Assembly (NCBI GenBank): GCA_964586975.1 | Contig: CAZPJV010000001.1 | Span: forward strand, 36,372 to 79,332 | Length of the DNA stretch: 42,961 bases | Reading direction: 5' to 3' | DNA from: an uncultured Candidatus Saccharibacteria bacterium | Lineage (GTDB): Bacteria > Patescibacteriota > Minisyncoccia > Phycocordibacterales > UBA9973 | Shown: one piece after another, positions 2,891 through 39,246 of the stretch | Layout: each line of letters begins with the position of its first letter | Position numbering within the stretch: the stretch's first letter is position 1 | Translations under genes and position numbers: made by a program | The notes under the pieces: generated by a model | The model's input: the letters and a program-made list of their open reading frames with translations, nothing else | The model's database searches: none | What the model was told of the DNA's origin: nothing

Positions 2891-2901
2891 TATGCTAGTA
2901 T
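2891..2901 (+). promoter_or_regulatory. Putative extended -10 (TATGCTAGTAT) for rpmF; a TTGCAT -35 lies 16 nt upstream at 2874-2879
   Basis: TTGCAT-16 nt-TAGTAT, then 7 nt to ATG 2909. Confidence 0.45.
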
Positions 2902-2908
2902 AGCCAGC

Positions 2909-3133
2909 ATGGTTGTCCGAATGAGGAGCACAAAATCGCATACTGGGAACCGGCGCTCGCACCACGCGCTCCGGAACCGGCGTTTGGTCGCGTGCGACAA
3001 TTGCAAAGTGCCTAAGATGGGACACGCGGTCTGTCTGTCCTGCGGCTACTATCGGGGCAAAAAAGTTTTGGATTTGATAAAGAAGATGGAGAAGAAGCAG
3101 AAAAAGGCTAAAGCAAAAGCAAGCGTGAAATAA
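2909..3133 (+). CDS. rpmF: 50S ribosomal protein L32
   Basis: MRSTKSHTGNRRSHHAL plus the zinc-ribbon pattern CDNC..CLSCG, typical of L32. Confidence 0.9.
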   Translation: MVVRMRSTKSHTGNRRSHHALRNRRLVACDNCKVPKMGHAVCLSCGYYRGKKVLDLIKKMEKKQKKAKAKASVK

Positions 3134-3150
3134 TTTTCGGCCTCCCGAAC

Positions 3151-3167
3151 AAAAGCCTCCGGCTTTT
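3151..3167 (+). terminator. Hairpin AAAAGCC-tcc-GGCTTTT after rpmF
   Basis: Perfect 7-bp inverted repeat ending in a T-run, 18 nt after the rpmF stop. Confidence 0.4.
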
Positions 3168-3209
3168 AACGGGATGCTCATAAATTATACTCACTTCGTT
3201 CGTTAATTT

Positions 3210-4130
3210 ATGGCAAATCGGCACCTTTCCAGGTCAATAGTTCTCCAGACGCTTTTTGAATGGGATTTTCTGTCTGCGGAAGAAAAAGAGAAATTACCTC
3301 CCGAGGGCCTTAAAGAAATACTCCAAAGGAATTTGGCGGAATTCGCTCCCGGTTTTGAGAATGATTCTTTCGCCGCCGCGCTTTTGGAACGGACACTCCA
3401 AAAGGGCCCGGCCGTAGACGCAATCATAGAGAAAGCCGCGCCGGACTGGCCGATTGATAAAATCTCAGTCATTGACCGGAATATTTTGCGTCTGGGCCTG
3501 ACCGAGCTTCTTTTCGGCGACCGGGACGAAGTGCCGCCCAAGGTTGCAATTAACGAAGCCATTGAGCTGGCGAAAACTTTCGGCGGAGAGAACTCCGGCA
3601 AATTTGTGAATGGTGTCTTGGGCGCGGTCTACAAAGAAATCGGCGAGCCGGGCAAGGAACAAACCAGCAAACACAAAAAAAAAGACGAGCCGGTGGATGT
3701 TTCCAAACTGCCGGTGGAGAAGAAAGGCGGGGCGCTGGTGTATGCCCAAAAGGACGGCGGTATTATGTTCGCATTGGTGCACGATGTTTTCGGCTATTGG
3801 ACCATCTCCAAAGGGAGCATTGAAGAAGGAGAAAATGAAGAAGAGGCAACGGTACGAGAAATAAAAGAAGAAATCGGCCTGGATATTGAGATAGAAGAAA
3901 AACTGGGAGAAAATGAATATGTGGCTACGCACCCGGAAAAGGGCAAGAGCCTGAAGCGGGTGGTTTACTTTCTAGCCAAGAGCGAATACCGGGAATTGGT
4001 TCTGGAAAAATCCACCGGCCTGGACGGGGCCCGATGGTTTCCGGTTTCTGCCATTCCAGAATTACGAATTTACAATGACATAATCCCCCTTATCGGCAAA
4101 GCGGTGGAAATAATTAGTAGTAAAAAGTAA
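3210..4130 (+). CDS. nusB: NusB antitermination factor fused to a C-terminal Nudix hydrolase domain
   Basis: The N-terminal half carries NusB motifs ([53 protein letters not shown]). A K-rich linker follows, then the Nudix box [23 protein letters not shown] at 3813-3881. Confidence 0.85.
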
Positions 4131-11778: not shown

Positions 11779-12465
11779 ATGCGTTTTCATGTAATTACAA
11801 TTTTTCCGGAAATGTTTTATTCTTATTTAAAAGAGTCCATTATCGGCCGGGCGGTGAAGGCGAAAAAGATTTCCATCAAATTTTATAATCCTTGGGATTT
11901 TTGCCCCAAGCAGGAGCGGGTGGATGCTCGGCCCTATGGCGGCGGTCCCGGCATGGTGTTGCGACCGGAATTTATAATCAAAGCTATAGTGAAAGCTTTG
12001 AAGAATGCTAACTCCTCCCAAACCCTCCCCTTACGTAAGGGGAGGGCAAAGGGTGGGGTTATGATAATCAATTTTGTGCCCAGCGCCGAAAAATTCAATA
12101 CGGCGTTTGCCAAAAAATTTGCAAAAAAATACCGAGATATCATTTTAATTGCCGGCCGGTATGAAGGCATTGATGCCCGGGTAGATAAAATTTTCAAAAC
12201 TAAAAAAATATCCGTAGGGGATTATGTCCTTACCGGCGGGGAACTGCCGGCGATGATTTTAATTGATTGTATTGCCCGCCAAGTGCCGGGAGTTCTGGGC
12301 AAGCATGAATCTTTAGAAGAAGAGAGGGTCTCAAGCAGCGAAGTTTACACTCGCCCGGAAGTTCTAAAATATCGCGGGAAAAATTATCGCGTGCCTAACG
12401 TGCTCCTTTCCGGTAACCATGCTAAAATTAATGCATGGAAGCAAAACAAACAAAAATCAGGATAG
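11779..12465 (+). CDS. trmD: tRNA (guanine37-N1)-methyltransferase
   Basis: VITIFPEMF, DARPYGGGPGMVL, AGRYEGIDARV, GDYVLTGGELPAM and LLSGNHAKI. It contains a 51-nt in-frame palindromic insert. Confidence 0.95.
   Translation: MRFHVITIFPEMFYSYLKESIIGRAVKAKKISIKFYNPWDFCPKQERVDARPYGGGPGMVLRPEFIIKAIVKALKNANSSQTLPLRKGRAKGGVMIINFVPSAEKFNTAFAKKFAKKYRDIILIAGRYEGIDARVDKIFKTKKISVGDYVLTGGELPAMILIDCIARQVPGVLGKHESLEEERVSSSEVYTRPEVLKYRGKNYRVPNVLLSGNHAKINAWKQNKQKSG
12010..12060. repeat. 51-nt GC-rich palindromic element embedded in frame in trmD
   Basis: Perfect 24-nt palindrome CCCTCCCCTTAC|GTAAGGGGAGGG at 12023-12046, with imperfectly complementary flanks. It encodes NSSQTLPLRKGRAKGGV. Confidence 0.7.
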
Positions 12466-13220
12466 ATTTTATCGTAGTTATCTTGATGGTGATTGTAACT
12501 ATACCCCTTGTTCTTTTGTTTCAAGTCCGGTTTTTAACCTCTACGCTGTTGTTTTTTGGTGTGCCCGCCCTTTATCTATTTTTAAGAAAGCCCAAGCAGA
12601 CAAATAGATTAGCGCATACTCTTTTGGGTGGAATGATAGCCTCTTTTGTTCTAGATTTTTTTGCCGAAATCAATGGGGCTTGGTCTTGGGCGCCGGAAGG
12701 GCAGTTGTTTTTTCCCAACAAACTTTTTGACCTTGTGCCTATAGACGTGCTTATTTGGTATTTTTTTTGGATTTTATTCACCGTTATATATTATGAACAT
12801 TTTTTCGAAAATGAACGTTCGGAAAAGATTTCCCCATTATTTAATTATGCTTTCCTATCTATCTTTTCAATTGCTGTTCTAATGATAGTGGTGTTCTATG
12901 CAAATCAGGATCTTTTAATATTTCCTTACGCATATTTATATTTGATGTTATTTTTTTCATACCCCTTCTTTATTCTCATTTTCAAAAAACCTCATCTGAT
13001 AGACAAACTCATGAAAGCTTCGATATTCAACATCCTTCTCTTTTTAAGCTTTGAACTTACGGCTCTACATCTTGACCAATGGAGATTTCCCGGACAGTAC
13101 ATAGGTTATGTGCAACTTTTTGGCCTTCAATTTCCTTTTGAGGAGTTTGTTTTTTGGATAGTATTAGGAACACCAATTTTTCTATCTTATTACGAAATAT
13201 GTGTCGATGATGGCAAGTAG
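12435..13220 (+). CDS. Polytopic membrane protein, possibly lycopene-cyclase-domain (CrtYc/d-like) family
   Basis: About 7 hydrophobic segments. Two PxE/D-type motifs are present (VPIDVLIWYFFW and FPFEEFVFWIV). It overlaps the trmD 3' end by 31 nt; an alternative start is ATG 12486. Confidence 0.45.
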   Translation: MEAKQTKIRIDFIVVILMVIVTIPLVLLFQVRFLTSTLLFFGVPALYLFLRKPKQTNRLAHTLLGGMIASFVLDFFAEINGAWSWAPEGQLFFPNKLFDLVPIDVLIWYFFWILFTVIYYEHFFENERSEKISPLFNYAFLSIFSIAVLMIVVFYANQDLLIFPYAYLYLMLFFSYPFFILIFKKPHLIDKLMKASIFNILLFLSFELTALHLDQWRFPGQYIGYVQLFGLQFPFEEFVFWIVLGTPIFLSYYEICVDDGK

Positions 13221-13267
13221 ATAAAAAATGCATCGATAATTTATAAGATAAAGTAGATAATTAATGG

Positions 13268-13305
13268 TTGTGTATAAATCCAGCATATGCTAAAATATTA
13301 CACAA
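13268..13305 (+). promoter_or_regulatory. Palindromic box 1 (TTGTGTA-N-CAGCATATGCTA-N-TACACAA) containing a full promoter (TTGTGT-17 nt-TAAAAT)
   Basis: 38-nt near-palindrome immediately upstream of ATG 13310. It is 31/38 identical to box 2. Confidence 0.55.
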
Positions 13306-13309
13306 CCCA

Positions 13310-13912
13310 ATGGAAAATAGATACCTTTCGCAGTTAAGAGACTTTCTGGATTCAGGCACAACCAACGCAAAGATTGCCAAGGTTTCTTTGTGCGTATTGG
13401 CCGTTGCCTCCATGCCGGTATTGGCATTTGTTGCCGCGGCTATGGGCAATACCGTCCAAGTTTTCAGGCAATTTGAAACATCCAAGCGTTTCAACAAGGA
13501 ACAAATAAGAAATTCCATAAGTTCTCTCCGCAAACAAAAATTAATTGAGTACATTGAATACAAAAACAGCAAAACTATTGTAAAAATTACCAAAAAGGGC
13601 GAATCCAAATTGCGTGCCTTCGCGATTGATCTCCTGAAAATAAAAAAGCCTAAAAAATGGGATAAAAAATGGCGGCTGGCAATGTTTGATATACCCATGC
13701 GATTTACCAGGGGCAGAGAAGCATTCAGATATCATTTGAAAGAGTTAGGATTTTACCAGTTTCAAAAATCTGCGTGGATTTATCCATATCCGTGCGAAGA
13801 TGAAATTATATTTATTGCCGATTTCTTTGGGGTAAGCAAGTTTATGGAAGTTCTAACTGTGGAACGGATTCTAAGAGACGAGCACCTAAAAAAACATTTT
13901 CATCTGACTTGA
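13310..13912 (+). CDS. Winged-helix / PaaX-like (Cas2-fold C-terminal domain) putative regulator
   Basis: N-terminal hydrophobic segment, then a wHTH-like stretch ISSLRKQKLIEYIEYK..ITKKGESKL, then WDKKWRLAMFDIPMRFTRGREAFRYHLKELGFYQFQKSAWIYP, which resembles the PaaX/Cas2-like ferredoxin-fold motif. Confidence 0.5.
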   Translation: MENRYLSQLRDFLDSGTTNAKIAKVSLCVLAVASMPVLAFVAAAMGNTVQVFRQFETSKRFNKEQIRNSISSLRKQKLIEYIEYKNSKTIVKITKKGESKLRAFAIDLLKIKKPKKWDKKWRLAMFDIPMRFTRGREAFRYHLKELGFYQFQKSAWIYPYPCEDEIIFIADFFGVSKFMEVLTVERILRDEHLKKHFHLT

Positions 13913-13916
13913 TGAA

Positions 13917-13954
13917 TTGTGTAAGATTTCAGCATATGCTAGAATTATACACAA
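13917..13954 (+). promoter_or_regulatory. Palindromic box 2, a second copy of box 1 with -10 TATGCTAGAAT
   Basis: TTGTGTAAGATTTCAGCATATGCTAGAATTATACACAA, 5 nt after the wHTH gene stop and upstream of rpoB. Confidence 0.5.
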
Positions 13955-13986
13955 TTTAAATCATTATAAAATATCCCCAGATCGGT

Positions 13987-14014
13987 TTGACAAAGATTTG
14001 GAAATCCGTATACT
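13987..14014 (+). promoter_or_regulatory. Putative sigma-70 promoter for rpoBC: TTGACA-16 nt-TATACT
   Basis: Consensus -35 and a near-consensus -10, giving a 78-nt leader to ATG 14092. Confidence 0.45.
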
Positions 14015-20937: not shown

Positions 20938-21331
20938 TATTGTAAAAAAATTTCTTGAGTGGATAAAACTTAAGGAGAAATTACATAACAACAAGCACAT
21001 GCCACCATTATTTAAAGAAGGAGAAATTTGGTGGTGCAGTATAGGTGAAAATATTGGTAGTGAAATAAACGGCAAGAGCGGATTGTTTTCTCGTCCAGTA
21101 CTAATTTTCAGGAAACTTTCCAAATCTACTTTTATGGGCATACCTACTTCTTCTCAAGACCGAAAAGGTAGTTGGTACGTTCAAATAACCTTAGGTAATA
21201 TAAAAAGTGTAGTAATATTAAGCCAAGCGAGGTTATTAGATTATAAAAGATTATCTTCCAAAATCGGAGAACTTGATGTGGTTGAAATGAATAAAGTGAA
21301 AGAGAAATTTAGGAGTTTATATTGTCCTTAA
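20933..21331 (+). CDS. PemK/MazF-family toxin-like protein; no adjacent antitoxin ORF seen
   Basis: EGEIWWCSIGENIGSEINGKSGLFSRPVLIF..GIPTSS..VVILSQARLLDYKRL matches the MazF/PemK SH3-like barrel pattern. Confidence 0.65.
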   Translation: MSIVKKFLEWIKLKEKLHNNKHMPPLFKEGEIWWCSIGENIGSEINGKSGLFSRPVLIFRKLSKSTFMGIPTSSQDRKGSWYVQITLGNIKSVVILSQARLLDYKRLSSKIGELDVVEMNKVKEKFRSLYCP

Positions 21332-21336
21332 ACAAA

Positions 21337-21371
21337 AATTCCCCTCTTGCGAGGGGCCGTGGGAAATTCCC
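21337..21371. repeat. REP-like hairpin module AATTCCCCTC-ttgc-GAGGGG..GGGAAATTCCC
   Basis: Variant of the ATTCCCCTCTTGAGGGG module found at 24809-24827 and, inverted, at 24357-24374 and 24396-24414. Confidence 0.55.
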
Positions 21372-21376
21372 AAAAG

Positions 21377-21409
21377 TAATTAAAGTATAGCAAATACAAA
21401 CAATATGTC
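21377..21409 (+). repeat. Right copy of the imperfect direct repeat flanking the PemK-like gene (dnaG leader)
   Basis: See 20906-20937. Confidence 0.4.
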
Positions 21410-21427
21410 AAGTGAAAAAACACAAAT

Positions 21428-23143
21428 ATGATTATGGATTCACCCGTCGCTAAAATTAAAGAAAGGTTGGGGATAGAAGAAATTGCCTCGTCTTACATCA
21501 AGCTCACCCGGGCCGGCGCGAACCTGAAAGCCAAGTGTCCTTTTCACAACGAAAAGACGCCGTCCTTTTTCGTGTCGCCGGAGCGGGGCACCTATTATTG
21601 TTTTGGTTGCGGAGCCTCCGGCGACATTTTTACTTTTGTGGAAGAATTTGAGGGCCTGGATTTCAAGGGTGCGCTGAAGTTGTTGGCGGACCGGGCCGGC
21701 GTGCAGCTGCCGCGTTTTAATCCGAAAGAGGAAAGCGAAAAAGAAAAATTATATCAGGCAATGGAAGAAGCCGCTTTGTATTTTGAAAATAATTTAAAAA
21801 ACAACAGCAAGGTACAAGAATATCTAAAATCTCGCGGTTTAAACGAGCAAAGCATCAAGGATTTCAAAATTGGTTTCGCGGAGCCAGACTGGCGACTTCT
21901 GTATTCACACTTGAAAACCAAAGGTTTTTCCGATACGGAGATAGAGCGAGCAGGCTTGGCAAAAAAATCAGAAAAAGGCTATTATGACAGATTTCGCGGG
22001 AGAGTTATCTTTCCGATAACGGATTCCAGCGGGAGAGTTATCGCTTTCTCCGGCAGAATATTCGGCGAGGGCGAGCCGAAATATCTGAATAGCCCCGAGA
22101 CTCCCATTTTTTCCAAAAGCGCCGCGCTTTACGGCATAGATAAGGCGAAGGGTCATATTCGCAAAAACAACTTTTCTATTTTGGTTGAGGGCCAGATGGA
22201 TTTAATAATGTCGCATCAAGCGGGCTATCGGAACACAGTAGCCGCTTCCGGCACCGCTCTCTCAGATGCGGTGCTCTCCCAGGAAAATGTGGTGTCCAAT
22301 TTGGGCTTGGTGCGCCGGCTTGCCTCCAACATCGTGCTGGCGCTGGACGCCGACCCGGCCGGAGAAAAAGCGGCGGAGCGCGCGGGCCGGATTGCGCTCT
22401 CTCTGGGTATGGATGTGAAAGTGGCCAGTCTGTCCGCGGGCGCCGACCCGGCCGAACTTATCGCTAAGCAAGGCGCGGAGGCGTGGCGCGAAGCCATAAA
22501 AAATTCCAAACATATCGTGGAATTCGCGCTGGCTAAAATTTTAGAGAAGCACCAGAGTGACTCGCGCAAGGCCGGCCGGGAAATAAAAGAAAAAGTTCTG
22601 CCGTTCGTGGCCGCCCTGCCGAGCTCCATTGAGCGGGCGCATTTTTTGAAAAAAATCAGCGACCAATCCGGCATTCCGGAGAGCGCCCTGGAAGAAGATT
22701 TTAAAAAAGTGGACCAAGCGCAAGGCAGTGAAAGAATTGAGTTGGCAGAAACGGAAGCGGCGCTGGACACTCTGCGCCGCCGGGATTATATTGAGCGCAA
22801 GCTTCTGGGCATCGCTTTCTGGCAGGCATCGCTCTCAAAACCCACGCTGGATTTCAAAGCGATTTTTGAAAAATTGGCAAAGGAGCGCAAAAAATACGAG
22901 GATATCAAAAGCGACCTGATTTTTGAAGCGGAAATATTTTACAAAGATAGTGAAAATTTGGAAAAAAGCGTGCAGGAAATGTTCTTGAATCTGGAGGAAG
23001 AAAATATTAATGAAACGCTCAATCAGAAAATGCTCGCCCTGCGACGGGCACCGGACGAGAAATCCGGCCAGGAAATTTTGAAAGAAATTGACGAATTAAA
23101 TAAGAGTAAAGAAAAAATTAAGAGTGGTCGCGTAAAAAAATAA
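21428..23143 (+). CDS. dnaG: DNA primase
   Basis: Zinc-binding [30 protein letters not shown] and the TOPRIM motifs EGQMDLI and [13 protein letters not shown]. Confidence 0.93.
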
Positions 23144-34379: not shown

Positions 34380-35420
34380 ATGAGTTTAAAATTACACTTT
34401 CTTTTTTTTATTTTCTGCTTGTTTCTGCTGTCGGCTGGCGCGGCGCGGGCAATTACCGTTGAAATTACGGCAACTGTCGCGGGTTGTGGCGATGGAGTAA
34501 TAGGATCCGGCGAACAATGCGACGGGTCCGATTTAGGCGGGGCGACCTGCTCTTCGCAGGGATTTTCCGGCGGCACTTTATCGTGCTCTTCTGCCTGCAC
34601 TTTTAACACTTCGCAATGTACTTCCGGTGGCGGTGGCGGTGGTGGTGGTGGCGGCGGCGGGGGAGGTTACAGTAGTACCTCGATTACAACCATTCCCAAT
34701 ACCAATGTGGTGTTTACCGGCCGAGCATATCCCCGAAGCACGGTGACTTTACTTAAAGACGCTCAAATTGTTGCCACTACTATTGCGAGCGCAGATGCAA
34801 ATTTCCAAGTTACTATTTCCAACATTTCCGGCGGGAATTATTTGTTTAGCGTTTACTCCGAGGACAATAAAGGCAATCGCTCGTCCTTGCTGACCTTCCC
34901 GGTGGGTATTACTGCTGGAGTAACCACAAAGGTGAGTGATATTTTCATAGCTCCTTCCTTGGCGGTGGATAAAAGCGAAGTCAGAAAAGGAGATACGATT
35001 TCAATATTTGGCCAAAGCGTTCCCACAGCGGCTGTTACCATTACCATTGGCTCGGACCAAGACTTTTTCGTGCAAGGAAGCGCGGACTCAAGCGGAATTT
35101 ATTTATTAAATTTTGATACCACTCCACTGGAAATGGGTCAGCATACTGCAAAATCAAAATCCTCTTTTAAGGGTGAGATAAGCCCTTTTTCTAAAGTGAC
35201 CAGTTTTATTGTAGGGACACAGAATATTTTAGCGCAAGCCCCAACGCAGTCTTCCCTAAAAGGCGACACAAATAGTGATAGCCGAGTCAATCTGGTTGAT
35301 TTTTCTGTTGCCGCATATTGGTATAAGCGCCCCAGCCCACCAGCAACAGCTGATCTAAATGGCGATAAGAAAGTCGATCTAGTGGATTTCAGTATTATGG
35401 CTTATTATTGGACCGGGTAG
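34380..35420 (+). CDS. Secreted protein: Cys-rich CGDG repeat, poly-Gly linker, Ig-like region and C-terminal dockerin
   Basis: Signal peptide and CGDGVIGSGEQCDGSDLGGATC. Two Ca-loop/helix dockerin segments are present: DTNSDSRVNLVDFSVAAYWY and DLNGDKKVDLVDFSIMAYYW. Confidence 0.7.
   Translation: MSLKLHFLFFIFCLFLLSAGAARAITVEITATVAGCGDGVIGSGEQCDGSDLGGATCSSQGFSGGTLSCSSACTFNTSQCTSGGGGGGGGGGGGGGYSSTSITTIPNTNVVFTGRAYPRSTVTLLKDAQIVATTIASADANFQVTISNISGGNYLFSVYSEDNKGNRSSLLTFPVGITAGVTTKVSDIFIAPSLAVDKSEVRKGDTISIFGQSVPTAAVTITIGSDQDFFVQGSADSSGIYLLNFDTTPLEMGQHTAKSKSSFKGEISPFSKVTSFIVGTQNILAQAPTQSSLKGDTNSDSRVNLVDFSVAAYWYKRPSPPATADLNGDKKVDLVDFSIMAYYWTG
34626..34667 (+). repeat. (GGN)14 simple repeat encoding 14 consecutive glycines
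   Basis: ggtggcggtggcggtggtggtggtggcggcggcgggggaggt. Confidence 0.9.
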
Positions 35421-35488
35421 TGAATTTTGGTGCTGTGCATAGCACGTACGAAACTGCGTTTCGTACAGCACCAAAATCTACTACCCGG
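35413..35488 (+). other. 76-nt multi-stem inverted-repeat structure spanning the dockerin gene stop codon
   Basis: P1 is CCGGGTAGT/ACTACCCGG (9 bp) and P2 is TTTTGGTGCT/AGCACCAAAA (10 bp). The mini-hairpin is GTGC-ata-GCAC. P4 is GTACGAAAC-tgc-GTTTCGTAC (9 bp). No T-tract follows. Confidence 0.55.
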
Positions 35489-35510
35489 GGACCGAGATAA
35501 AGTAGATAAC

Positions 35511-35777
35511 ATGTTTTATTACACTTATGTGCTTCAAAGAAAACAGAATGATGATTTGTATATCGGATATACGACCGATCTACGTCGCAGGATTTCAGAG
35601 CACAACAGTGGAAAGAATTTTTCCACAAAAAACAAAGGACTATGGCAGGTCATATTTTACGAAGCGTACCTTGATGCTGATGATGCAATGCGGCGAGAAA
35701 AGTATCTTAAATCAAGCCAGGGTTCGCGATTACTTAAACGTATGCTGAAAGAATATTTCTATAAAAGAAGAATATGA
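35511..35777 (+). CDS. Small GIY-YIG nuclease-domain protein (COG2827/UPF0213-like), copy 1
   Basis: YYTYVLQ..DLYIGYTTDLRRRISEHN..R(R)EKYLK. The stop overlaps the next gene's start (ATGA). Confidence 0.75.
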   Translation: MFYYTYVLQRKQNDDLYIGYTTDLRRRISEHNSGKNFSTKNKGLWQVIFYEAYLDADDAMRREKYLKSSQGSRLLKRMLKEYFYKRRI

Positions 35778-36646
35778 ACATTGTAACCAAAACCAAAATA
35801 ATCATTCCAATTCTTTCGCTCGCTTTGTGCGTGCCCCTACTAGCGCTTGCGGCGGAGCTTCGTTTGGATCCCCACAAAGTCGCGGTTGGCTTACGGGAGC
35901 AATTTATCGTGGATGTCGTTGTCAATTCCGCCGACTCGCTCAATGCGGTTCAGGGCCAACTGGTCTTTTCAGCGGAACAATTGACGCCGGTAAACATCTT
36001 GGACGGCAACACAGTTATTAATTTTTGGGTGGAAAAACCCAATAGTCCGGAGCCCGGAATAATTGCCTTTTCCGGCATTACTCCCGGCGGGTTCAGCGGA
36101 CCCACTAATCTCCTTTTCTCCGTGGTTTTTGAAGCGAAAAATACCGGCCCGGCTAACATTGCATTTCAAGAGATAAAAGTTTTGCTGAATGACGGACAGG
36201 GTACCGAGGCCGCCTTTTCGACCCGCAACACTACGATTCTCGTCAAACCCGGGGACAGCAATGTCCGTCGGGAAACATTCTCGGACACCGAACCGCCGGA
36301 AGATTTTACGCCGCTCATCGCCCGCGACCCGAATATTTTTGACGGCAAATATTTTTTGGTATTTTCCACTCAAGATAAAAAATCTGGTATAAACCGTTAT
36401 GAAGTACGGGAAGGCAAGTGGAGTTGGTTCCACGAAGCAGAAAGCCCTTATCTTTTGAGGGATCAAAATTTACGGAGTAAAATATACATAAAAGCGATAG
36501 ACCAGAACGACAACGAGCGACTGGTAATCGTAGCGTCGCGCAATCTCGCGCCCTGGTGGCAAGATAGCAATTGGATTGTTATAATACTAGGAGCATTGCT
36601 TGCCGGAATTTTAGCGAAAAAACTATGGCCAAACTCTACAAAATAA
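35774..36646 (+). CDS. Cohesin-like domain protein with a C-terminal TM anchor
   Basis: Signal peptide. The cohesin-like pattern is FIVDVVVNSADSLNAVQGQLVFSAEQL..GIIAFSGITPGG..LLFSVVFEAKNTGPANIAF. The C-terminal TM is WIVIILGALLAGILA. Confidence 0.6.
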   Translation: MNIVTKTKIIIPILSLALCVPLLALAAELRLDPHKVAVGLREQFIVDVVVNSADSLNAVQGQLVFSAEQLTPVNILDGNTVINFWVEKPNSPEPGIIAFSGITPGGFSGPTNLLFSVVFEAKNTGPANIAFQEIKVLLNDGQGTEAAFSTRNTTILVKPGDSNVRRETFSDTEPPEDFTPLIARDPNIFDGKYFLVFSTQDKKSGINRYEVREGKWSWFHEAESPYLLRDQNLRSKIYIKAIDQNDNERLVIVASRNLAPWWQDSNWIVIILGALLAGILAKKLWPNSTK

Positions 36647-38313
36647 TTTTTATTCTAGTGTTGGGGTTTTTGCCTTATTTAGCGTCTGCCGCGTCTCTTT
36701 CTTTTTCCTCAAGCAGCTCTCCGGCGGTCGGCAGCACCTTTACGGTAAATGTTTTGGTTTCAAGCTTGGATCAATCCATGAACGCGGCGTCGGGAATCGT
36801 TGCCTTTCCCTGGGATAAATTGGAAGTGGTTTCGGTATCAAAACAGGGCTCAATATTTTCCCTGTGGGCGGAAGAGCCGGCTTTTTCCAACAGCGCAGGC
36901 ACAGTGAGTTTTGAAGGTATTGTTTTAAATCCCGGCTTTAAAGGCGCTAATGGAAAAATTTTAACAATAAATTTTAGAGCCAAGCGGGAGGGCCAGGCCA
37001 ACTTGAGTTTTTCTTCCGGTTCGGTTTTAGCCAACGACGGTTCCGGCACAAACATTCTGTCCGATTTGCGGGTTGCGGTCGTAGTTATCGGTTCTTCTCC
37101 AACGCCAGTACCCGATGTTATAGCGGCCGAGGGAGCTCCGCTTATAACTTCTACAACCCATCCCAATAGCTCACTGTGGTATGCCAACAAAAATCCCGAG
37201 TTTGCGTGGAAACTACCCGCCGGAGCTATCGCTGTCCGCACATCTATCAGTAAATCTGCTGGCGCCGAGCCGTCGGTCCTGTATGAACCGCCGATTTCCA
37301 AAAAGAAAGTGGACAATTTGTCGGATGGCACGCACTATTTTGCGCTGCAAATCAGGGACGCTACTGGTTGGGGTAAAATCGGACGGTATAAAATAAATAT
37401 TGACACCATTCCACCCGAACCGTTTGCTATTACCTTTCCTCATGGCAATTCCACGCTGGAACCCCAGCCAGTGATACTTTTTAATACCAAGGACACAGCA
37501 TCGGGCGTGAGCCACTATGACATCAGAATCAACGACGGCGGCCCCGACCGCAAAGTACCCCAGACGGATTCCAATCCATACCCCCTGCCGCCTCAAAAGC
37601 CCGGCAATTATATTGTCAAAATAACCGCCTTTGACCGCGCCGGCAATGCGACCAATACGTCTGAAAAATTTACCATTGAAGCCATCCGCGCGCCGACCAT
37701 TACCTACTATCCAACGGAAATAGAGTCGGGAGATTTGCCCAGGATTAGAGGCAATACTTACGAAGATGCCGATGTTACTATTAAGGTCTGGGAGAGCGGC
37801 GAGGAAATATCCCAAGAGTATGTCCGAAGTAATTCCAGTGGCGATTTTAATGCCTTAGTAACCAAGCGCCTTTCGCCAGGCACCTACACTTTCACTGTTT
37901 ACGTGACCGATGCCCGAGGCGCGAGCAGTAATGAAACAGAACCGCTCCAAATTCACGTAGAATCCCGCTTTATTAAAGACATTACCGATATCTTTCTAGA
38001 CTATTTTGGCAGAGCGATGACCATTGCATTCTTGCTCTTGGGCGCCGGAGTGGGCCTGTGGTATTTCTATGCAAAGACGATAAAAAAATTGCAGTATTTG
38101 CACCGGCGGGAAAAAGAAGCCGAGAAAACTACCGTAAAATCTTTCGAGCTTTTGCGCAAAGACATAGATGCTCATATCGCGCGCCTCAAAAAAGCGCAAA
38201 CCAGACGCAAGCTCACCGATGAGGAAGTGCAGTTTCTGGAGCAATTTGAAGAAACTTTAGCGGAAGCCGAAGGCATCATTGAGAAAGAAATACGCGGCAT
38301 TGCCGAGTCCTAA
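36625..38313 (+). CDS. Large cohesin-like domain surface protein with Ig-like repeats, a TM segment and a cytoplasmic coiled-coil tail
   Basis: Start chosen at MAKLYK (signal peptide). The cohesin-like pattern is FTVNVLVSSLDQSMNAASGIVAFPWDKLEVVSV..GTVSFEGIVLNPGF..ILTINFRAKREGQANLSF. The TM is MTIAFLLLGAGVGLWYFYA. Confidence 0.6.
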   Translation: MAKLYKIIFILVLGFLPYLASAASLSFSSSSSPAVGSTFTVNVLVSSLDQSMNAASGIVAFPWDKLEVVSVSKQGSIFSLWAEEPAFSNSAGTVSFEGIVLNPGFKGANGKILTINFRAKREGQANLSFSSGSVLANDGSGTNILSDLRVAVVVIGSSPTPVPDVIAAEGAPLITSTTHPNSSLWYANKNPEFAWKLPAGAIAVRTSISKSAGAEPSVLYEPPISKKKVDNLSDGTHYFALQIRDATGWGKIGRYKINIDTIPPEPFAITFPHGNSTLEPQPVILFNTKDTASGVSHYDIRINDGGPDRKVPQTDSNPYPLPPQKPGNYIVKITAFDRAGNATNTSEKFTIEAIRAPTITYYPTEIESGDLPRIRGNTYEDADVTIKVWESGEEISQEYVRSNSSGDFNALVTKRLSPGTYTFTVYVTDARGASSNETEPLQIHVESRFIKDITDIFLDYFGRAMTIAFLLLGAGVGLWYFYAKTIKKLQYLHRREKEAEKTTVKSFELLRKDIDAHIARLKKAQTRRKLTDEEVQFLEQFEETLAEAEGIIEKEIRGIAES

Positions 38314-38324
38314 AATACATGCGG

Positions 38325-38424
38325 AGCCGGAAGAGGGATTCGAACCCTCGACCTTCGCTTTACAAAAGCGTTGCTCCCCGCCCGCAACGCTCTCGCTTGC
38401 GAGGCGGGCGGGTACCAACTGAGC
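38325..38424 (-). pseudogene. tRNA-Thr(UGU)-like 3' portion: D-arm with a 36-nt hairpin insert, anticodon arm, T-arm and acceptor 3' strand TTCCGGC; the acceptor 5' strand is missing
   Basis: The minus strand reads GCTCAGTTGGTA[CCCGCCCGCCTCGCAAGCGAGAGCGTTGCGGGCGGG]GAGCAACGCTTTTGTAAAGCGAAGGTCGAGGGTTCGAATCCCTCTTCCGGCT. Confidence 0.55.
38371..38424. repeat. 54-bp direct repeat, left copy (identical to 38742-38795)
   Basis: ttgctccccgcccgcaacgctctcgcttgcgaggcgggcgggtaccaactgagc occurs twice, 371 bp apart. Confidence 0.9.
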
Positions 38425-38494
38425 CGGTGGGGGGATTCGAACCCTCGACCTTCGCTTTACAAAAGCGTTGCTCTGCCAACTGAGCTACACCGGC
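38422..38494 (-). tRNA. tRNA-Thr (anticodon UGU), canonical 73 nt, no encoded CCA
   Basis: Hand-folded. The acceptor is GCCGGTG/CACCGGC and the D-arm is GCTC-AGTTGGCA-GAGC. The anticodon arm is ACGCT-TTTGTAA-AGCGA. The variable loop is AGGTC and the T-arm is GAGGG-TTCGAAT-CCCCC (one A:C mismatch). Confidence 0.85.
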
Positions 38495-38495
38495 T

Positions 38496-38732
38496 TCATA
38501 TTCTGCTCTTTAAAAATCTTCTACCGTATCCTGTTTTAAAGTATCTTTCTCTCTTTATAGCATTTTCCTTACTCGTACACGCTTCATAGTACACTAATTT
38601 TAGAGGTCTTCTATTTTTAGTAGCGGCTACTTTACCTCTATTATGATCCAATATACGTAACTTTAGATTATTAGTCCAGCCTATATACAATTTATAATCT
38701 ATATTGCTTTGTAGAACATAAGTGTAGTTCAT
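38496..38732 (-). CDS. Small GIY-YIG nuclease-domain protein (COG2827/UPF0213-like), copy 2
   Basis: MNYTYVLQS..KLYIGWTNNLKLRILDHN..RERYFK, a paralogue of the 35511-35777 product. The stop lies 1 nt before the tRNA-Thr 5' end, and the start lies 10 nt after the 54-bp repeat. Confidence 0.7.
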   Translation of the reverse strand: MNYTYVLQSNIDYKLYIGWTNNLKLRILDHNRGKVAATKNRRPLKLVYYEACTSKENAIKRERYFKTGYGRRFLKSRI

Positions 38733-38741
38733 ATTATAATT

Positions 38742-38795
38742 TTGCTCCCCGCCCGCAACGCTCTCGCTTGCGAGGCGGGCGGGTACCAACTGAGC
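38742..38795. repeat. 54-bp direct repeat, right copy
   Basis: Identical to 38371-38424. Confidence 0.9.
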
Positions 38796-38804
38796 TATTC
38801 CGGC
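38742..38804 (-). pseudogene. tRNA 5' portion: acceptor 5' strand GCCGGAA, D-arm with the same 36-nt hairpin insert
   Basis: The minus strand reads GCCGGAATAGCTCAGTTGGTA[36-nt hairpin]GAGCAA. GCCGGAA is exactly complementary to TTCCGGC at 38326-38332. Confidence 0.55.
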
Positions 38805-38823
38805 ATTGATTTTTGGTATTTTA

Positions 38824-39246
38824 TCACACTTGAGAATTTGTTTCTTCTTCTTTGATTTCTTCTTTAATCCGGCCGAGCTTGCGTTTGTATTCGGCGATTG
38901 CTTTTAGGAACTTACTCGGCTGTTTAACCGAGGGTTCCGATGCCAGCCCGGCTGTTTTCTGGAATTTGGCTTTTAGTTCCGCCCAGCATTTTTTACATGC
39001 CTCCGCAAGCCGGACATAGATTCGGATAATTTCCATCAAAAGAAAATAGCCCAGCCTTCTGGTTATTTTAAAAATAAACTCCTTGGTTTTCTCAAAGCGG
39101 AACGAGGGCGAAGAAACATGTTCCACCGGGAGAGTTTGCCCGTTGGCCAGCGCCCGCAACTTGCGGCCGACCATAAAAATGATTCCGAACAGCGAGGCAA
39201 AAAATAAAATTAGAAAAAAATACATCTTATTTTTGCGGAAGTTCAA
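38824..39246 (-). CDS. Hypothetical membrane protein
   Basis: N-terminal TM (YFFLILFFASLFGIIFMV) and a charged C-terminus. An alternative start at 39225 would remove the overlap with tsf. Confidence 0.4.
   Translation of the reverse strand: MNFRKNKMYFFLILFFASLFGIIFMVGRKLRALANGQTLPVEHVSSPSFRFEKTKEFIFKITRRLGYFLLMEIIRIYVRLAEACKKCWAELKAKFQKTAGLASEPSVKQPSKFLKAIAEYKRKLGRIKEEIKEEETNSQV

Follow-up and report, generated by a model that had tools for sequence, protein, structure and literature searches.

Why does a tRNA gene hold a nuclease gene and a second tRNA of its own kind? In the window, the whole stretch of 42,961 nucleotides that we analysed, a resident tRNA-Thr(UGU) gene read on the minus strand from 38804 to 38325 is interrupted by a 371-bp unit. 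This unit contains a 78-aa GIY-YIG open reading frame (ORF) and a complete second tRNA-Thr(UGU), and exact 54-bp direct repeats lie on either side, both with the same 36-nt GC-rich palindrome ('H') inside. We conclude with high confidence that a tiny selfish element invaded the D-loop of the resident tRNA-Thr(UGU) of a Parcubacteria-type CPR bacterium, and that it consists of copies of H, a gene for a 78-aa Slx1/UPF0213-type GIY-YIG protein and its own tRNA-Thr(UGU), termed B. Comparison loci and contigs carry L numbers, L001 being the second species. The parts of the locus are as follows.

38818..38826, minus strand: putative extended -10 element TGATAAAAT of the resident tRNA gene (picked out by eye only)
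38784..38804, minus strand: A, 5' fragment of the outer tRNA-Thr(UGU), GCCGGAA-TA-GCTC-AGTTGGTA, that is, acceptor 5' strand GCCGGAA, TA, D-stem 5' strand GCTC and D-loop AGTTGGTA (sequence)
38425..38795, minus strand: one 371-bp repeat period with H, GAGCAA, spacer, ORF and tRNA B (repeat spacing)
38742..38795, minus strand: 54-bp direct repeat, copy 1, made up of D-stem 5' strand, D-loop, H and GAGCAA (repeat search)
38748..38783, minus strand: H copy 1, the 36-nt palindrome CCCGCCCGCCTCGCAAGCGAGAGCGTTGCGGGCGGG, inserted 3' of GGTA in the D-loop
38742..38747, minus strand: GAGCAA, tRNA-derived (sequence)
38733..38741, minus strand: 9-nt spacer AATTATAAT from GAGCAA to ATG, identical in the second species
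38496..38732, minus strand: 78-aa GIY-YIG nuclease gene, stop codon included (Pfam PF01541)
38495, minus strand: single nucleotide A between ORF and inner tRNA (sequence)
38422..38494, minus strand: B, complete inner tRNA-Thr(UGU), 73 nt (Rfam RF00005, 66.2 bits; ARAGORN)
38371..38424, minus strand: 54-bp direct repeat, copy 2, which shares its first 3 nt with the 3' end of tRNA B
38377..38412, minus strand: H copy 2 (repeat search)
38325..38421, minus strand: C, 3' part of the outer tRNA-Thr, in the order D-loop, H, GAGC, anticodon arm (UGU), T arm, TTCCGGC and discriminator, with no adjoining 5' acceptor strand (sequence; partial Rfam match)

A repeat search returned the two 54-bp copies as family D1, 100% identical at a spacing of 371 bp, and an exact repeat of this length within 43 kb is far beyond chance. 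The split tRNA-Thr had been described in a sequence-only reading of this DNA; all of its elements were found at the positions it had given, and the identity of the 54-bp repeats and of 42 nt between the two tRNAs held up. No tyrosine or serine recombinase gene lies in the 371-bp unit, which comprises solely the 78-aa ORF and the tRNA. Upstream, the candidate -10 element overlaps the stop codon of the preceding gene, and a similar TGTAAAAT stands before an intact tRNA in L127. A scan for promoter and terminator consensus sequences gave nothing above shuffle expectation, missing TGATAAAAT because it has no -35 match.

Could two strain variants have been concatenated through the repeat during assembly? 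The window resembles a metagenome-derived contig, judging by its CPR-type gene content, and contigs frequently end at H (L124, L132, L133 and L136), which would both suit such an artefact. However, in the second species the whole architecture was assembled independently on at least eight contigs, which stem from various samples and assemblers; k=141 contigs among them read through both 54-bp copies into unique flanks. Unrelated MAGs show the same architecture with other types of tRNA, and for the window's own species an independent run (L124) yielded the A-H junction again. We exclude an assembly artefact and give concatenation next to no probability.

The sequence-only reading had proposed looking in relatives for empty sites, and these exist. 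In a syntenic relative (L127) the tRNA-Thr(UGU) at this locus is intact and has the acceptor stem of the outer tRNA. A presence/absence polymorphism was found as well: occupied alleles (L128-L134) occur in the same samples as empty alleles (L137-L142), which are 95.1% identical to the L128 type over 2.9 kb upstream and have an uninterrupted tRNA with the same leader and acceptor as the occupied type. These alleles show the 371-bp unit to be an insertion.

The insert also appears in a different species. H and the ORF are 99% identical between the window and the second species, whereas identity between these genomes is just 74% for rpsB and 83% for tsf. The 99% identity breaks off within the 3' end of the ORF and returns in C. 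The C module of the second species carries the window-type T-stem strand GAGGG, unable to pair with its own CCGAG, and the A boundary is polymorphic, reading GCTCAG or GCTTAG, with GCTTAG as the native allele. By these three signs (T stem, A boundary and the break in identity within the ORF), flanking markers were co-converted with the element. Three different sequences stand on the left-hand side of TCAGTTGGTA-H, each joined to it at GGC-TCAG.

We examined the two tRNAs separately. Inner tRNA B scored 66.2 bits against the Rfam RF00005 gathering threshold of 29 and was also called by ARAGORN. The 3' part of the outer tRNA (38325-38381) reached 28.3 bits in a permissive scan, just under gathering, and was found by ARAGORN solely at a lowered threshold. 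GCCGGAA of A is perfectly complementary to TTCCGGC at 38332-38326; B has its own acceptor stem, GCCGGTG/CACCGGC, so that two compensatory acceptor base pairs distinguish it from the outer tRNA, and one A-C mismatch in its T stem. Compensatory acceptor-pair differences between B and A/C were seen in the window, L001 and L045, and L007 combines a window-type A fragment with an L001-type B. Deleting one repeat unit in silico had been said to rebuild a contiguous tRNA-Thr. With H left in the product ARAGORN called no tRNA; once H was removed too, it called a fully Watson-Crick tRNA-Thr(UGU). With high confidence, A and C are two dead halves of the resident gene and B was imported from a related lineage; B is, at the same confidence, a candidate functional replacement copy.

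A different solution would lie at the RNA level, with the outer tRNA working as a split or permuted tRNA, or with H as a D-loop intron, and with both tRNA-Thr genes functional. The perfect complementarity of the outer strands speaks for this, RNA with H in place still folds acceptor, anticodon and T arms, and split and permuted tRNAs are known in archaea and algae (PMC3218864, PMC3978253). However, the outer T stem of the second species is unpairable and holds a second palindrome, the 3' part is decayed or absent in older loci, and H-bearing tRNA pieces are always fragments beside a complete tRNA or, in L049, a second ORF unit. We know of no bulge-helix-bulge splicing endonuclease in bacteria. 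In protein genes H is part of the reading frame and is translated, so it has no need of excision. We consider an RNA-level solution highly improbable. ARAGORN's intron options, applied to the deletion product, gave just a spurious 'tRNA-Arg with intron' and did not recognise H as an intron, and a permissive Rfam scan of 38250-38900 showed no group I intron; the insertion sits in the D-loop and not in the anticodon loop. In L013, by contrast, a group I intron (79 bits) is present in tRNA-Asn.

What, then, is H? It has 9-bp arms (CCCGCCCGC and GCGGGCGGG) and a folding energy of -26.4 kcal/mol (z = -4.0). The exact 36-mer was found on 37 metagenome contigs, where its contexts number over 20, are unrelated and share no flank homology; both orientations occur. 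At 12 codons it is stop-free in all six frames, which is why many copies can lie in frame inside essential protein genes; xth, tsaD and dnaE hold copies of H in L091, L122 and L117. H itself is a mobile palindrome, and the 36-nt hairpin first taken for a feature of the tRNA D-loop is one copy of it. Its loop sizes form a series (36, 38, 40-47, 52-66, 79-81 and ~300 nt), and at six loci (L025, L059, L064, L066, L068 and L069) the GIY-YIG ORF lies inside a split H, between H-left and H-right. The position of the ORF relative to H varies between downstream, upstream and within. No target-site duplication is visible around H at D-loop sites, which read GGTA-H-GAGC or GG-H-TAGAGC. We rejected a rule that would put H 3' of TA in every case, its orientation fixing the position, given counter-examples in L012, L052 and L058 and copies of H in D stem, acceptor stem and T-loop. 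Rfam scans at gathering and permissive thresholds returned no family for H or the spacer; weak HDV-like and other matches were attributable to chance.

The 78-aa ORF matched the GIY-YIG family (Pfam PF01541) over residues 1-71 with 59.1 bits (cut-off 22.6, E = 5.6e-16). Y5, Y16, G18, R26, H30, E50 and E62 are invariant across 27 diverse relatives, including the catalytic Y, Y, R, H and E. Profile searches of the PDB ranked 1zg2 (E = 1.2e-8) and 1ywl (3.4e-6), both UPF0213, before an SLX1 homolog (3.8e-3) and I-TevI (0.92). The protein is a minimal, single-domain nuclease of the Slx1/UPF0213 type: its 78 residues hold no other Pfam domain and no separate DNA-binding or recognition domain as in I-TevI or Seg. 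Searches of NCBIfam, PHROGs and PADLOC assigned it to neither a named family nor a phage family nor a defence system, and exact-protein look-ups (the ORF in 78-aa and 97-aa forms, and EF-Ts), in an index that lacks the window's genome, gave no match. The ORF has a GC content of 30% compared with 48% for the window. Across the family, dN/dS is ~0.14 and 87 of 88 ORFs are intact; the nuclease family is under purifying selection. The low dN/dS, the intact ORFs and the invariant catalytic residues together predict an active nuclease. Among 2.9 million IMG/VR contigs we found a single relative, so phages are not the usual carrier.

To place the locus in its family, we took a census of 80 species-representative genomes that encode the nuclease. 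In 60 of 80 loci a complete tRNA on the same strand lies within 130 nt downstream of the ORF stop codon (0.5 expected), and these partners cover 19 anticodon types; protein-gene and DGR contexts also occur. H lies within 130 nt in 71 of 80 loci against a background of 0.016 per kb, and 5' tRNA fragments terminate exactly at H. In 26 of 51 loci the upstream fragment contains the exact 5' acceptor strand of the downstream tRNA, in several with the leader too. Most tRNA loci have a single H and an ORF beyond its bounds, the two being kept apart by target-derived nucleotides 21-27; where loci are older, the 3' tRNA part is decayed or absent. The same unit had also been proposed as something to seek in other tRNA genes, and the split-outer-tRNA form was indeed found for tRNA-Ile (L045) and tRNA-Gln (L086). 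The nearest relative of an ORF shares its target in 24 of 74 cases (4.5 after shuffling). The family to which the locus belongs runs to thousands of members; ~3,600 protein clusters (50% identity) match the nuclease at E <= 1e-10.

An ordinary host operon might also place a GIY-YIG gene next to a tRNA gene: the nuclease would be a housekeeping factor for tRNA or repair, co-transcribed with the tRNA, and the fragments would be debris of local duplication, with nothing mobile. Its position immediately upstream of a same-strand tRNA in 60 of 80 genomes and the strong purifying selection fit this. However, presence/absence polymorphism contradicts it, with empty sites in a sister population that is ~95% identical over 2.9 kb upstream. 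Nor does it sit with the 99% identity of ORF and H across species whose core genes are at 74-83%, with tRNA partners of 19 anticodon types plus protein-gene and DGR contexts, or with an ORF GC content foreign to the window. We regard a host operon as very unlikely. As a mode of expression, a tRNA-punctuated operon is compatible with the data. Of the interpretations put forward in the sequence-only reading, the small tRNA-targeting mobile unit is strongly supported by the empty sites, the 99% cross-species copies, the linkage to 19 anticodons and the compensatory pairs. Its recombination-switchable locus is supported solely by the natural recombinants between the repeats (L006, L130, L105 and L128); nothing suggests a regulated switch.

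We lean, by a modest degree, towards a selfish element akin to a homing gene, one that both splits the resident tRNA and brings its replacement, by a mechanism that we infer as follows. The whole locus would be transcribed from the resident tRNA promoter, and RNase P, cleaving where B begins, would free both the nuclease mRNA and the tRNA. The insertion would be harmless to the host because B supplies the tRNA function, and B is tightly linked to the nuclease gene because it sits 1 nt past the stop codon. The nuclease, of the structure-specific Slx1 branch and without a DNA-binding domain, may break DNA at or near H or the D-loop region. Homologous recombination with an element-bearing copy would repair the break, using the conserved tRNA sequence and H as homology. 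The recipient would thereby acquire H, the ORF and tRNA B, while its flanks would be co-converted to a variable extent. Different repair registers could give the full architecture, the commoner form of 5' fragment, H, ORF and tRNA, or a lone H; further recombination between 54-bp repeats could give tandem or circular forms. Recombinants of the repeats were seen as a 370-nt cycle in L006, as 97-nt tandem units in L130 and as variant junctions in L105, L128 and L003. The right-hand junction may have formed at a GCTCAG microhomology between the tRNA 3' end with its trailer (GGC-TCAG) and the D stem (AGC-TCAG).

The D-arm of B bears on the target. It is intact, and in L045 it is identical to the D-arm of A/C, so a nuclease that recognised the D-arm would cut its own rescue copy, which favours H or a DNA structure as the target. 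Immunity through a changed D-loop in B (GGCA, compared with GGTA in the outer tRNA) was considered and rejected on account of the identical D-arms of B and A/C in L045.

Homology-driven homing does not explain the duplications of leader and 5' part at first entry into a new tRNA type. A rival account is passive recombination by the host. Here the unit would excise and reintegrate as a small circle in Campbell fashion, or be taken up as DNA, solely by the action of RecA on the 54-bp homology of D-arm and H, and the nuclease would have its role elsewhere, for example in host repair. Campbell-type integration of a circle with a tRNA 5' segment reproduces the common architecture, duplicated leader included. 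The 370-nt unit of the second species closes on itself as a cycle (L006, from ERZ27254846), and tandem arrays occur in L015, L035, L049, L081 and L130. On the other hand, 54 bp is a poor RecA substrate without a break, and passive recombination leaves unaccounted for both the linkage of this nuclease family to a tRNA 5' region and H in ~90% of loci and the strong purifying selection on an ORF in a selfish context. We hold this account to be distinctly improbable.

H is also frequent at sites with no nearby ORF and no obvious target homology, so it must move in a homology-independent manner as well. Another rival is a composite transposon, with H as terminal repeat and the GIY-YIG protein as transposase. 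Two copies of H flanking GAGCAA-ORF-tRNA-TCAGTTGGTA would have moved together into GGTA^GAGC, by cut-and-paste or copy-and-paste, and the 54-bp repeat would be a by-product in which the old D-arm flanks of H happened to match the new target. The six split-H loci resemble an autonomous element of which a lone H is the internally deleted derivative, and the graded loop sizes from 36 to ~300 nt, the identical copies at more than 20 unrelated sites without shared flank homology and the presence of both orientations all agree with it. Yet the tRNA sites (GGTA-H-GAGC) show no visible target-site duplication, and at most tRNA loci a single H stands apart from an outside ORF, with target-derived nucleotides 21-27 between them. 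Related ORFs keep their target type and flanks are co-converted, both of which are expected for homing, and to our knowledge no GIY-YIG transposase has been described. We judge a composite transposon unlikely.

Beyond the homing-like element itself, we tentatively suggest a broader proposition that we hold to be possible but doubtful. H and the Slx1-like GIY-YIG protein would form an unrecognised class of prokaryotic transposable element, whose ~0.3-kb autonomous form (H-left, ORF, H-right) would be among the smallest known and whose 36-47-nt lone-H derivatives would colonise the tRNA genes of CPR bacteria and, with the reading frame kept, their essential protein genes. The tRNA forms would act as 'disrupt-and-rescue' drives that split an essential single-copy tRNA gene and bring a linked substitute for it, and mobility would come from a structure-specific nuclease acting on a palindrome; recombinases, HUH transposases and homing enzymes that read sequence would play no part in it.

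We found no description of the element in open-access full text or bioRxiv preprints on GIY-YIG with tRNA or CPR, UPF0213, CPR palindromes or split tRNAs. If our reading is right, the seemingly streamlined genomes of CPR/Patescibacteria hold a large population of ultra-small selfish elements, which reshape tRNA genes and add stretches of 12 residues to essential proteins. The widespread minimal Slx1/UPF0213 GIY-YIG proteins of bacteria would gain a concrete candidate role. Fragments of tRNA, 'extra' tRNA genes and N-terminally extended GIY-YIG calls in CPR MAGs would be explained, and contig breaks at H may partly stem from these elements. Natural disruption and replacement of an essential RNA gene within 371 bp would also be relevant to gene drives and genome engineering.

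Several known systems resemble the element in part. SegB, a GIY-YIG homing endonuclease of phage T4, is free-standing and encoded within the phage's tRNA gene cluster (PMC2330249). Both are GIY-YIG genes that lie among tRNA genes and are not intronic, and in both flanking tRNA sequence is co-converted; SegB spreads by cleaving an allele that lacks it, as the present element would. SegB is, however, a full-size I-TevI-type enzyme with a DNA-binding region in a phage, whereas our protein, encoded in a cellular genome, amounts to a catalytic domain of 78 aa from the Slx1/UPF0213 branch, and its element lies inside one tRNA gene, comes with an entire tRNA as replacement and is associated with a palindrome.

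When integrative elements enter tRNA genes and restore them, they leave a comparable order of 5' tRNA fragment, element and complete downstream tRNA, and their loci too are heterogeneous in natural populations; in Caldiarchaeum, the 5' fragment that a pNOB8-type element left of a tRNA-Thr lies 1.8 kb upstream of the tRNA itself (PMC3293823). Such elements are kilobases long, encode an integrase or recombinase and duplicate the att core only. The present unit, in contrast, spans 371 bp without a recombinase and brings a complete foreign tRNA, whose acceptor stem has compensatory changes.

Synthetic 'cleave and rescue' gene drives, and natural toxin-antidote logic, offer a further parallel: an essential gene is disrupted and a linked working copy stands beside the nuclease gene. 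The likeness to our locus is an analogy only, and implies neither an attack on the resident gene by the nuclease nor lethality on loss of the element.

The Rickettsia palindromic elements (RPEs) and the REP and MITE-type palindromes are short and multicopy, and insert in frame into protein genes without breaking them. H is likewise short, palindromic, multicopy and in frame in protein genes; it differs in being 36-47 nt long, GC-rich, stop-free in six frames, resident in CPR bacteria and linked to a candidate nuclease gene. We know of no enzyme associated with RPEs, and REPs are associated with HUH-type RAYT transposases.

The prokaryotic Slx1-like and UPF0213 proteins (1zg2 and 1ywl) are the best match to our nuclease in sequence, single-domain size and catalytic residues. 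This group has been regarded as vertically inherited repair proteins of unassigned function (PMC1564403), whereas the subfamily described here behaves as part of a mobile element.

Read on the minus strand from 38804 to 38325, the split tRNA-Thr locus showed exactly the order of parts that the sequence-only reading had proposed, as confirmed by sequence, Rfam, ARAGORN and Pfam. We refer to its 36-nt GC-rich palindrome as H, to the 5' and 3' parts of the resident (outer) tRNA-Thr(UGU) as A and C, and to the complete inner tRNA-Thr(UGU) as B.

Parts of the split tRNA-Thr locus in the window, with the basis of each call in brackets
38804-38784, minus: A, GCCGGAA-TA-GCTC-AGTTGGTA (sequence)
38783-38748, minus: H copy 1, 36-nt palindrome CCCGCCCGCCTCGCAAGCGAGAGCGTTGCGGGCGGG (sequence)
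Between H copy 1 and the ORF, minus: GAGCAA, then a 9-nt spacer (sequence)
38732-38496, minus: GIY-YIG ORF, 78 aa (Pfam E = 5.6e-16)
Between the ORF and tRNA B, minus: a single nucleotide (sequence)
38494-38422, minus: B, canonical tRNA-Thr(UGU) (Rfam 66.2 bits; ARAGORN)
38424-38371, minus: second exact 54-bp copy, GCTCAGTTGGTA-H-GAGCAA (sequence)
Ending at 38325, minus: anticodon arm, T arm and TTCCGGC (sequence)

The two 54-bp copies are 100% identical at a spacing of 371 bp, bearing out the proposed direct repeats and 371-bp unit. The idea that deleting the unit rebuilds a tRNA-Thr held once H was also removed in silico, when ARAGORN called a tRNA-Thr(UGU) with all stems Watson-Crick, but not with H retained, when it called no outer tRNA; in a permissive Rfam scan, the 3' two-thirds of the outer tRNA scored 28.3 bits against a threshold of 29. 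The H hairpin is stable (-26.4 kcal/mol, z = -4.0) and within the window is confined to two positions, both at this locus.

The split-tRNA architecture is real. An assembly artefact, which the sequence-only reading had considered, is contradicted by its recurrence in independently assembled contigs of a second species. There the complete architecture, with acceptor stems different from those of the window, follows the same order (5' fragment, H, ORF, complete tRNA, D-arm plus H, remaining tRNA) and comes from separate assemblies of several samples, recorded at ENA and JGI (L001-L005, L128-L134); some of these contigs, built by MEGAHIT at k=141, span both repeat copies into unique flanks. Contig L124, from independent run SRR12113430, matches the window across the upstream gene, leader and 5' fragment and ends within H. 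The window's own proteins had no identical entries in the exact-match protein index.

The unit is an insertion in a resident tRNA-Thr gene. Upstream of it are rpsB, tsf and a 130-140-aa gene, a synteny kept in relatives, and two sets of relatives carry the empty site that had been envisaged. L127, with an upstream protein at 52% identity, has at the corresponding position a tRNA-Thr(UGU) without interruption, whose acceptor is that of the window's outer tRNA (GCCGGAA/TTCCGGC). L137-L142, a co-occurring sister population of the second species with 95.1% identity across 2.9 kb upstream, share with the second species the leader and the acceptor stem GCCGCCT/AGGCGGC; their tRNA is intact, and the site has neither H nor ORF. 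It follows that the two outer halves belong to the resident gene, to which H, ORF and inner tRNA were added.

Between species the unit is almost unchanged and carries a foreign, functional-looking tRNA. Over the ~290 nt that start at the D-arm, include H and end 12 nt short of the ORF stop, the window and L001 (second species) differ by 2 mismatches, compared with 74% identity in rpsB and 83% in tsf; the ORF has 30% GC versus 48% for the window.

Acceptor stems of inner and resident (outer) tRNAs
Window: inner GCCGGTG/CACCGGC; resident GCCGGAA/TTCCGGC
L001: inner GCCACCT/AGGTGGC; resident GCCGCCT/AGGCGGC
L045 (tRNA-Ile): inner GCGCGTG/CACGCGC; resident GCATCCG/CGGATGC

The acceptor-stem changes are compensatory in all three loci, and the inner and outer tRNAs appear to be distinct functional alleles rather than decaying duplicates.

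In L007 a 5' fragment of the window type is paired with an inner tRNA of the L001 type. The flanks of the unit are conversion-like mosaics. The downstream module of L001 has a window-type T-stem strand, GAGGG, unpairable with its own CCGAG; exactly at the end of the imported sequence, in the T-loop of the disrupted outer tRNA, sits a second palindrome of another subtype (CCTGCCCGCAATGC...GGCAGGCGGG, 38 nt; L001 676-713), also present in L004, L005, L129 and L134. The left boundary is polymorphic, GCTCAG or GCTTAG (the latter in the native allele), and together with the L001 T-stem mosaic resembles variable conversion tracts. At the right junction, GGC joined to TCAGTTGGTA-H, three different left-hand partners occur. 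Because the corresponding tRNA 3' end in L128 and L003 runs on into the native trailer TCAGATTTT, this junction appears to have formed at the microhomology GCTCAG, common to the tRNA 3' end plus trailer and to the D stem. Some second-species strains (L003 1400-2745; L128) also contain a 1.4-kb segment with an FAD-binding monooxygenase gene, flanked by two H-containing partial tRNA modules and joined at a GGCTCAG microhomology, as though a host gene had hitch-hiked with the element.

The unit belongs to a very large family: relatives were found in many other tRNA genes, as the sequence-only reading had suggested looking for. A word-indexed search gave 251 ORF relatives at E <= 1e-5, mostly of 78 aa, and in a profile search 3,618 of 1.84 billion cluster representatives matched at E <= 1e-10. 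From 591 encoding stretches in a one-genome-per-species scan, we took the best 80 for locus analysis; their labels are mainly Patescibacteria/CPR MAGs (Zambryskibacteria, Taylorbacteria, Doudnabacteria, Gottesmanbacteria and others), and many bins are labelled otherwise (uncultured Gammaproteobacteria, Bdellovibrionales, Methanosarcinaceae). Among these best 80 of 591, a complete same-strand tRNA starts within 130 nt of the ORF stop at 60 loci and within 20 nt at 41, against a chance expectation of ~0.5 loci from tRNA density in the flanks. These tRNAs represent 19 anticodon types, and 71 of the 80 loci have an H-type palindrome within 130 nt (background 0.016 per kb).

The commonest layout among the 80 (46 loci, plus 5 with H on both sides) starts with a tRNA leader and 5' part to the D-loop or D stem, then H, and continues with the next 5-10 tRNA nt, 5-10 nt, the ORF and a complete tRNA. 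In 26 of the 51, the 5' fragment includes a perfect copy of the downstream tRNA's 5' acceptor strand, and in the other 25 it is different or H-split; about a dozen loci have 3' tRNA remnants downstream of the complete tRNA. The window-type layout, with outer halves still complementary, recurs in L045, a tRNA-Ile(UAU) locus, and a decayed version occupies a tRNA-Gln in L086. Given this recurrence and the decayed forms, the window locus seems to be a young example of a common arrangement. In an alternative layout of ORF, spacer, GGG-H and tRNA (L017, L022, L033, L042, L083, L143), the terminal GGG of H restores the tRNA 5' end; L015, L035, L049 and L081 hold tandem units. Target choice tends to be shared by close ORF relatives: the nearest-neighbour ORF has a matching target in 24 of 74 cases versus 4.5 after shuffling, and targets switch at ~75% protein identity between ORFs. 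At L013 3265-3499, the tRNA-Asn downstream of the GIY-YIG ORF has a group I intron in its anticodon loop (Rfam 79 bits), so one tRNA gene can host two different selfish elements; L083 may resemble this case, with no Rfam match there.

The hairpin that the sequence-only reading placed in the D-loop is present at 36 nt, but we now read it as a separate element: judged by its sequence contexts, H is probably a mobile palindrome in its own right. In a metagenome scan the exact 36-mer occurred on 37 contigs with >20 different flanks, and Rfam had no family for it in gathering or permissive scans. H amounts to 12 codons, stop-free in 6/6 frames. At least 17 distinct cases place it within a long ORF, where the commonest reading is PARLASESVAGG.

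Genes hosting H in metagenome contigs L089-L123, assigned by flanking motifs
Exonuclease III, two different sites
TsaD-like protein
DNA polymerase III alpha subunit (DnaE)
MiaB-like radical-SAM enzyme
UvrC-like protein
Glycosyltransferases

L090, L095 and L109 have H in a tRNA-Trp 5' fragment adjoining a full tRNA-Trp, with the ORF absent, and H variants form a loop-length series from 36 to ~81 nt. At six loci the GIY-YIG ORF lies within a split H (H-left, ORF, H-right), either at the codons for the Rossmann motif GGAGF^IGS in NAD-dependent epimerase genes (L025, L068, L069) or in small AbrB-like genes (L059, L064, L066); L080 has lone H plus ORF at the epimerase site. All four epimerase loci (~2900-3300 each) have a short 5' epimerase fragment upstream and a complete gene just downstream, the same logic of fragment, element and intact copy as at tRNA genes. 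In L076, L079 and L085, ORF and H lie between an Avd-like four-helix-bundle gene and a putative DGR template repeat; the putative diversity-generating retroelement side also has a reverse transcriptase.

The window contains a second small GIY-YIG gene (35511-35777, plus; 88 aa, 45% identical to the 78-aa ORF) between a dockerin-domain and a cohesin-domain gene, its stop codon overlapping the ATG of the next gene. The palindrome before it (24-bp arms at 35413-35436 and 35465-35488, plus; 92% complementary) is longer than and different from H, and 35413-35777 (plus) looks like a related palindrome-plus-nuclease element in a non-tRNA context. Three neighbouring secreted-protein genes here (34380-35420 and 35774-38313, plus), the first with a 14-glycine run, have Ig-like, dockerin and cohesin domains and together resemble a surface assembly of the cellulosome type, here in a CPR genome. 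Elsewhere, 12000-14000, with a multi-pass membrane protein and a small gene without assigned function, and 21000-22000 are low in GC (36-41% versus a mean of 48%).

The closest solved structures to the 78-aa protein are the bacterial UPF0213 proteins 1zg2 and 1ywl, then SLX1; I-TevI was not significant among structure-database matches. NCBIfam, PHROGs and PADLOC gave no match, and IMG/VR just one relative. The ORF is under purifying selection (dN/dS ~0.14; pN 0.22 versus pS 0.78), intact in 87 of 88 copies and invariant in its catalytic residues. The published classification treats Slx1-like proteins of prokaryotes as the minimal domain form, without auxiliary domains, and notes one fusion to a TrmH-type tRNA G18 methyltransferase (PMC1564403). 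As 78 aa leave no space for a sequence-reading domain, it is more plausible that the nuclease recognises DNA structure, for example an extruded palindrome, than sequence.

Recombination between the repeats occurs in natural populations. Contig L006 closes on itself as a 370-nt cycle, its ends overlapping by exactly k=141; L130 contains tandem modules of 97 nt, and variant junctions are present in L105 and L128. Integration of small circles driven simply by RecA is a serious rival to homing. Under homing, the resident tRNA promoter would transcribe the whole locus and RNase P would free mRNA and tRNA; the nuclease would break DNA at or near H or the D-loop, and repair from an element-bearing copy would proceed via homology in tRNA and H. 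With a window-type donor, a left end on A would give the full unit when the right end is on C and the common layout when it is on B, and a left end on the inner D-arm copy (5' end, repeat copy 2) with the right on C would give lone H; these three registers would yield the three main layouts seen. Homing leaves unexplained B's escape from cleavage, H at sites without shared homology, and the colonisation of new tRNA types with their own leader duplicated, for which homology-based repair does not account. For these reasons, a mechanism of the transposition type, for H and for composites bounded by it, is a serious rival too. That H and the nuclease form a new class of transposable element is less likely than not, but a real possibility. 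The first proposal of the sequence-only reading, a small tRNA-targeting mobile unit, is supported by the insertion, its near-identity across species, the foreign tRNA and the family-wide linkage to tRNA genes of 19 anticodon types.

The palindromic elements of Rickettsia enter protein genes in frame, and H is stop-free in six frames in a similar manner; in REP/RAYT systems a transposase accompanies a palindromic repeat. Integrase-bearing elements resemble the window element in that the tRNA they rebuild has a 5' tRNA fragment left upstream of it (PMC3293823), and T4 SegB in being a GIY-YIG homing enzyme among tRNA genes (PMC2330249). Each of these closest known systems shares some features with the window element, of which we found no description in open-access papers and preprints. 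A domain-only Slx1-type nuclease, a coding-compatible palindrome and a complete replacement tRNA do not occur together in <400 bp in any of the compared systems. The kind itself, homing or selfish elements in tRNA genes, is already known, and we read the window element as a variant of it.
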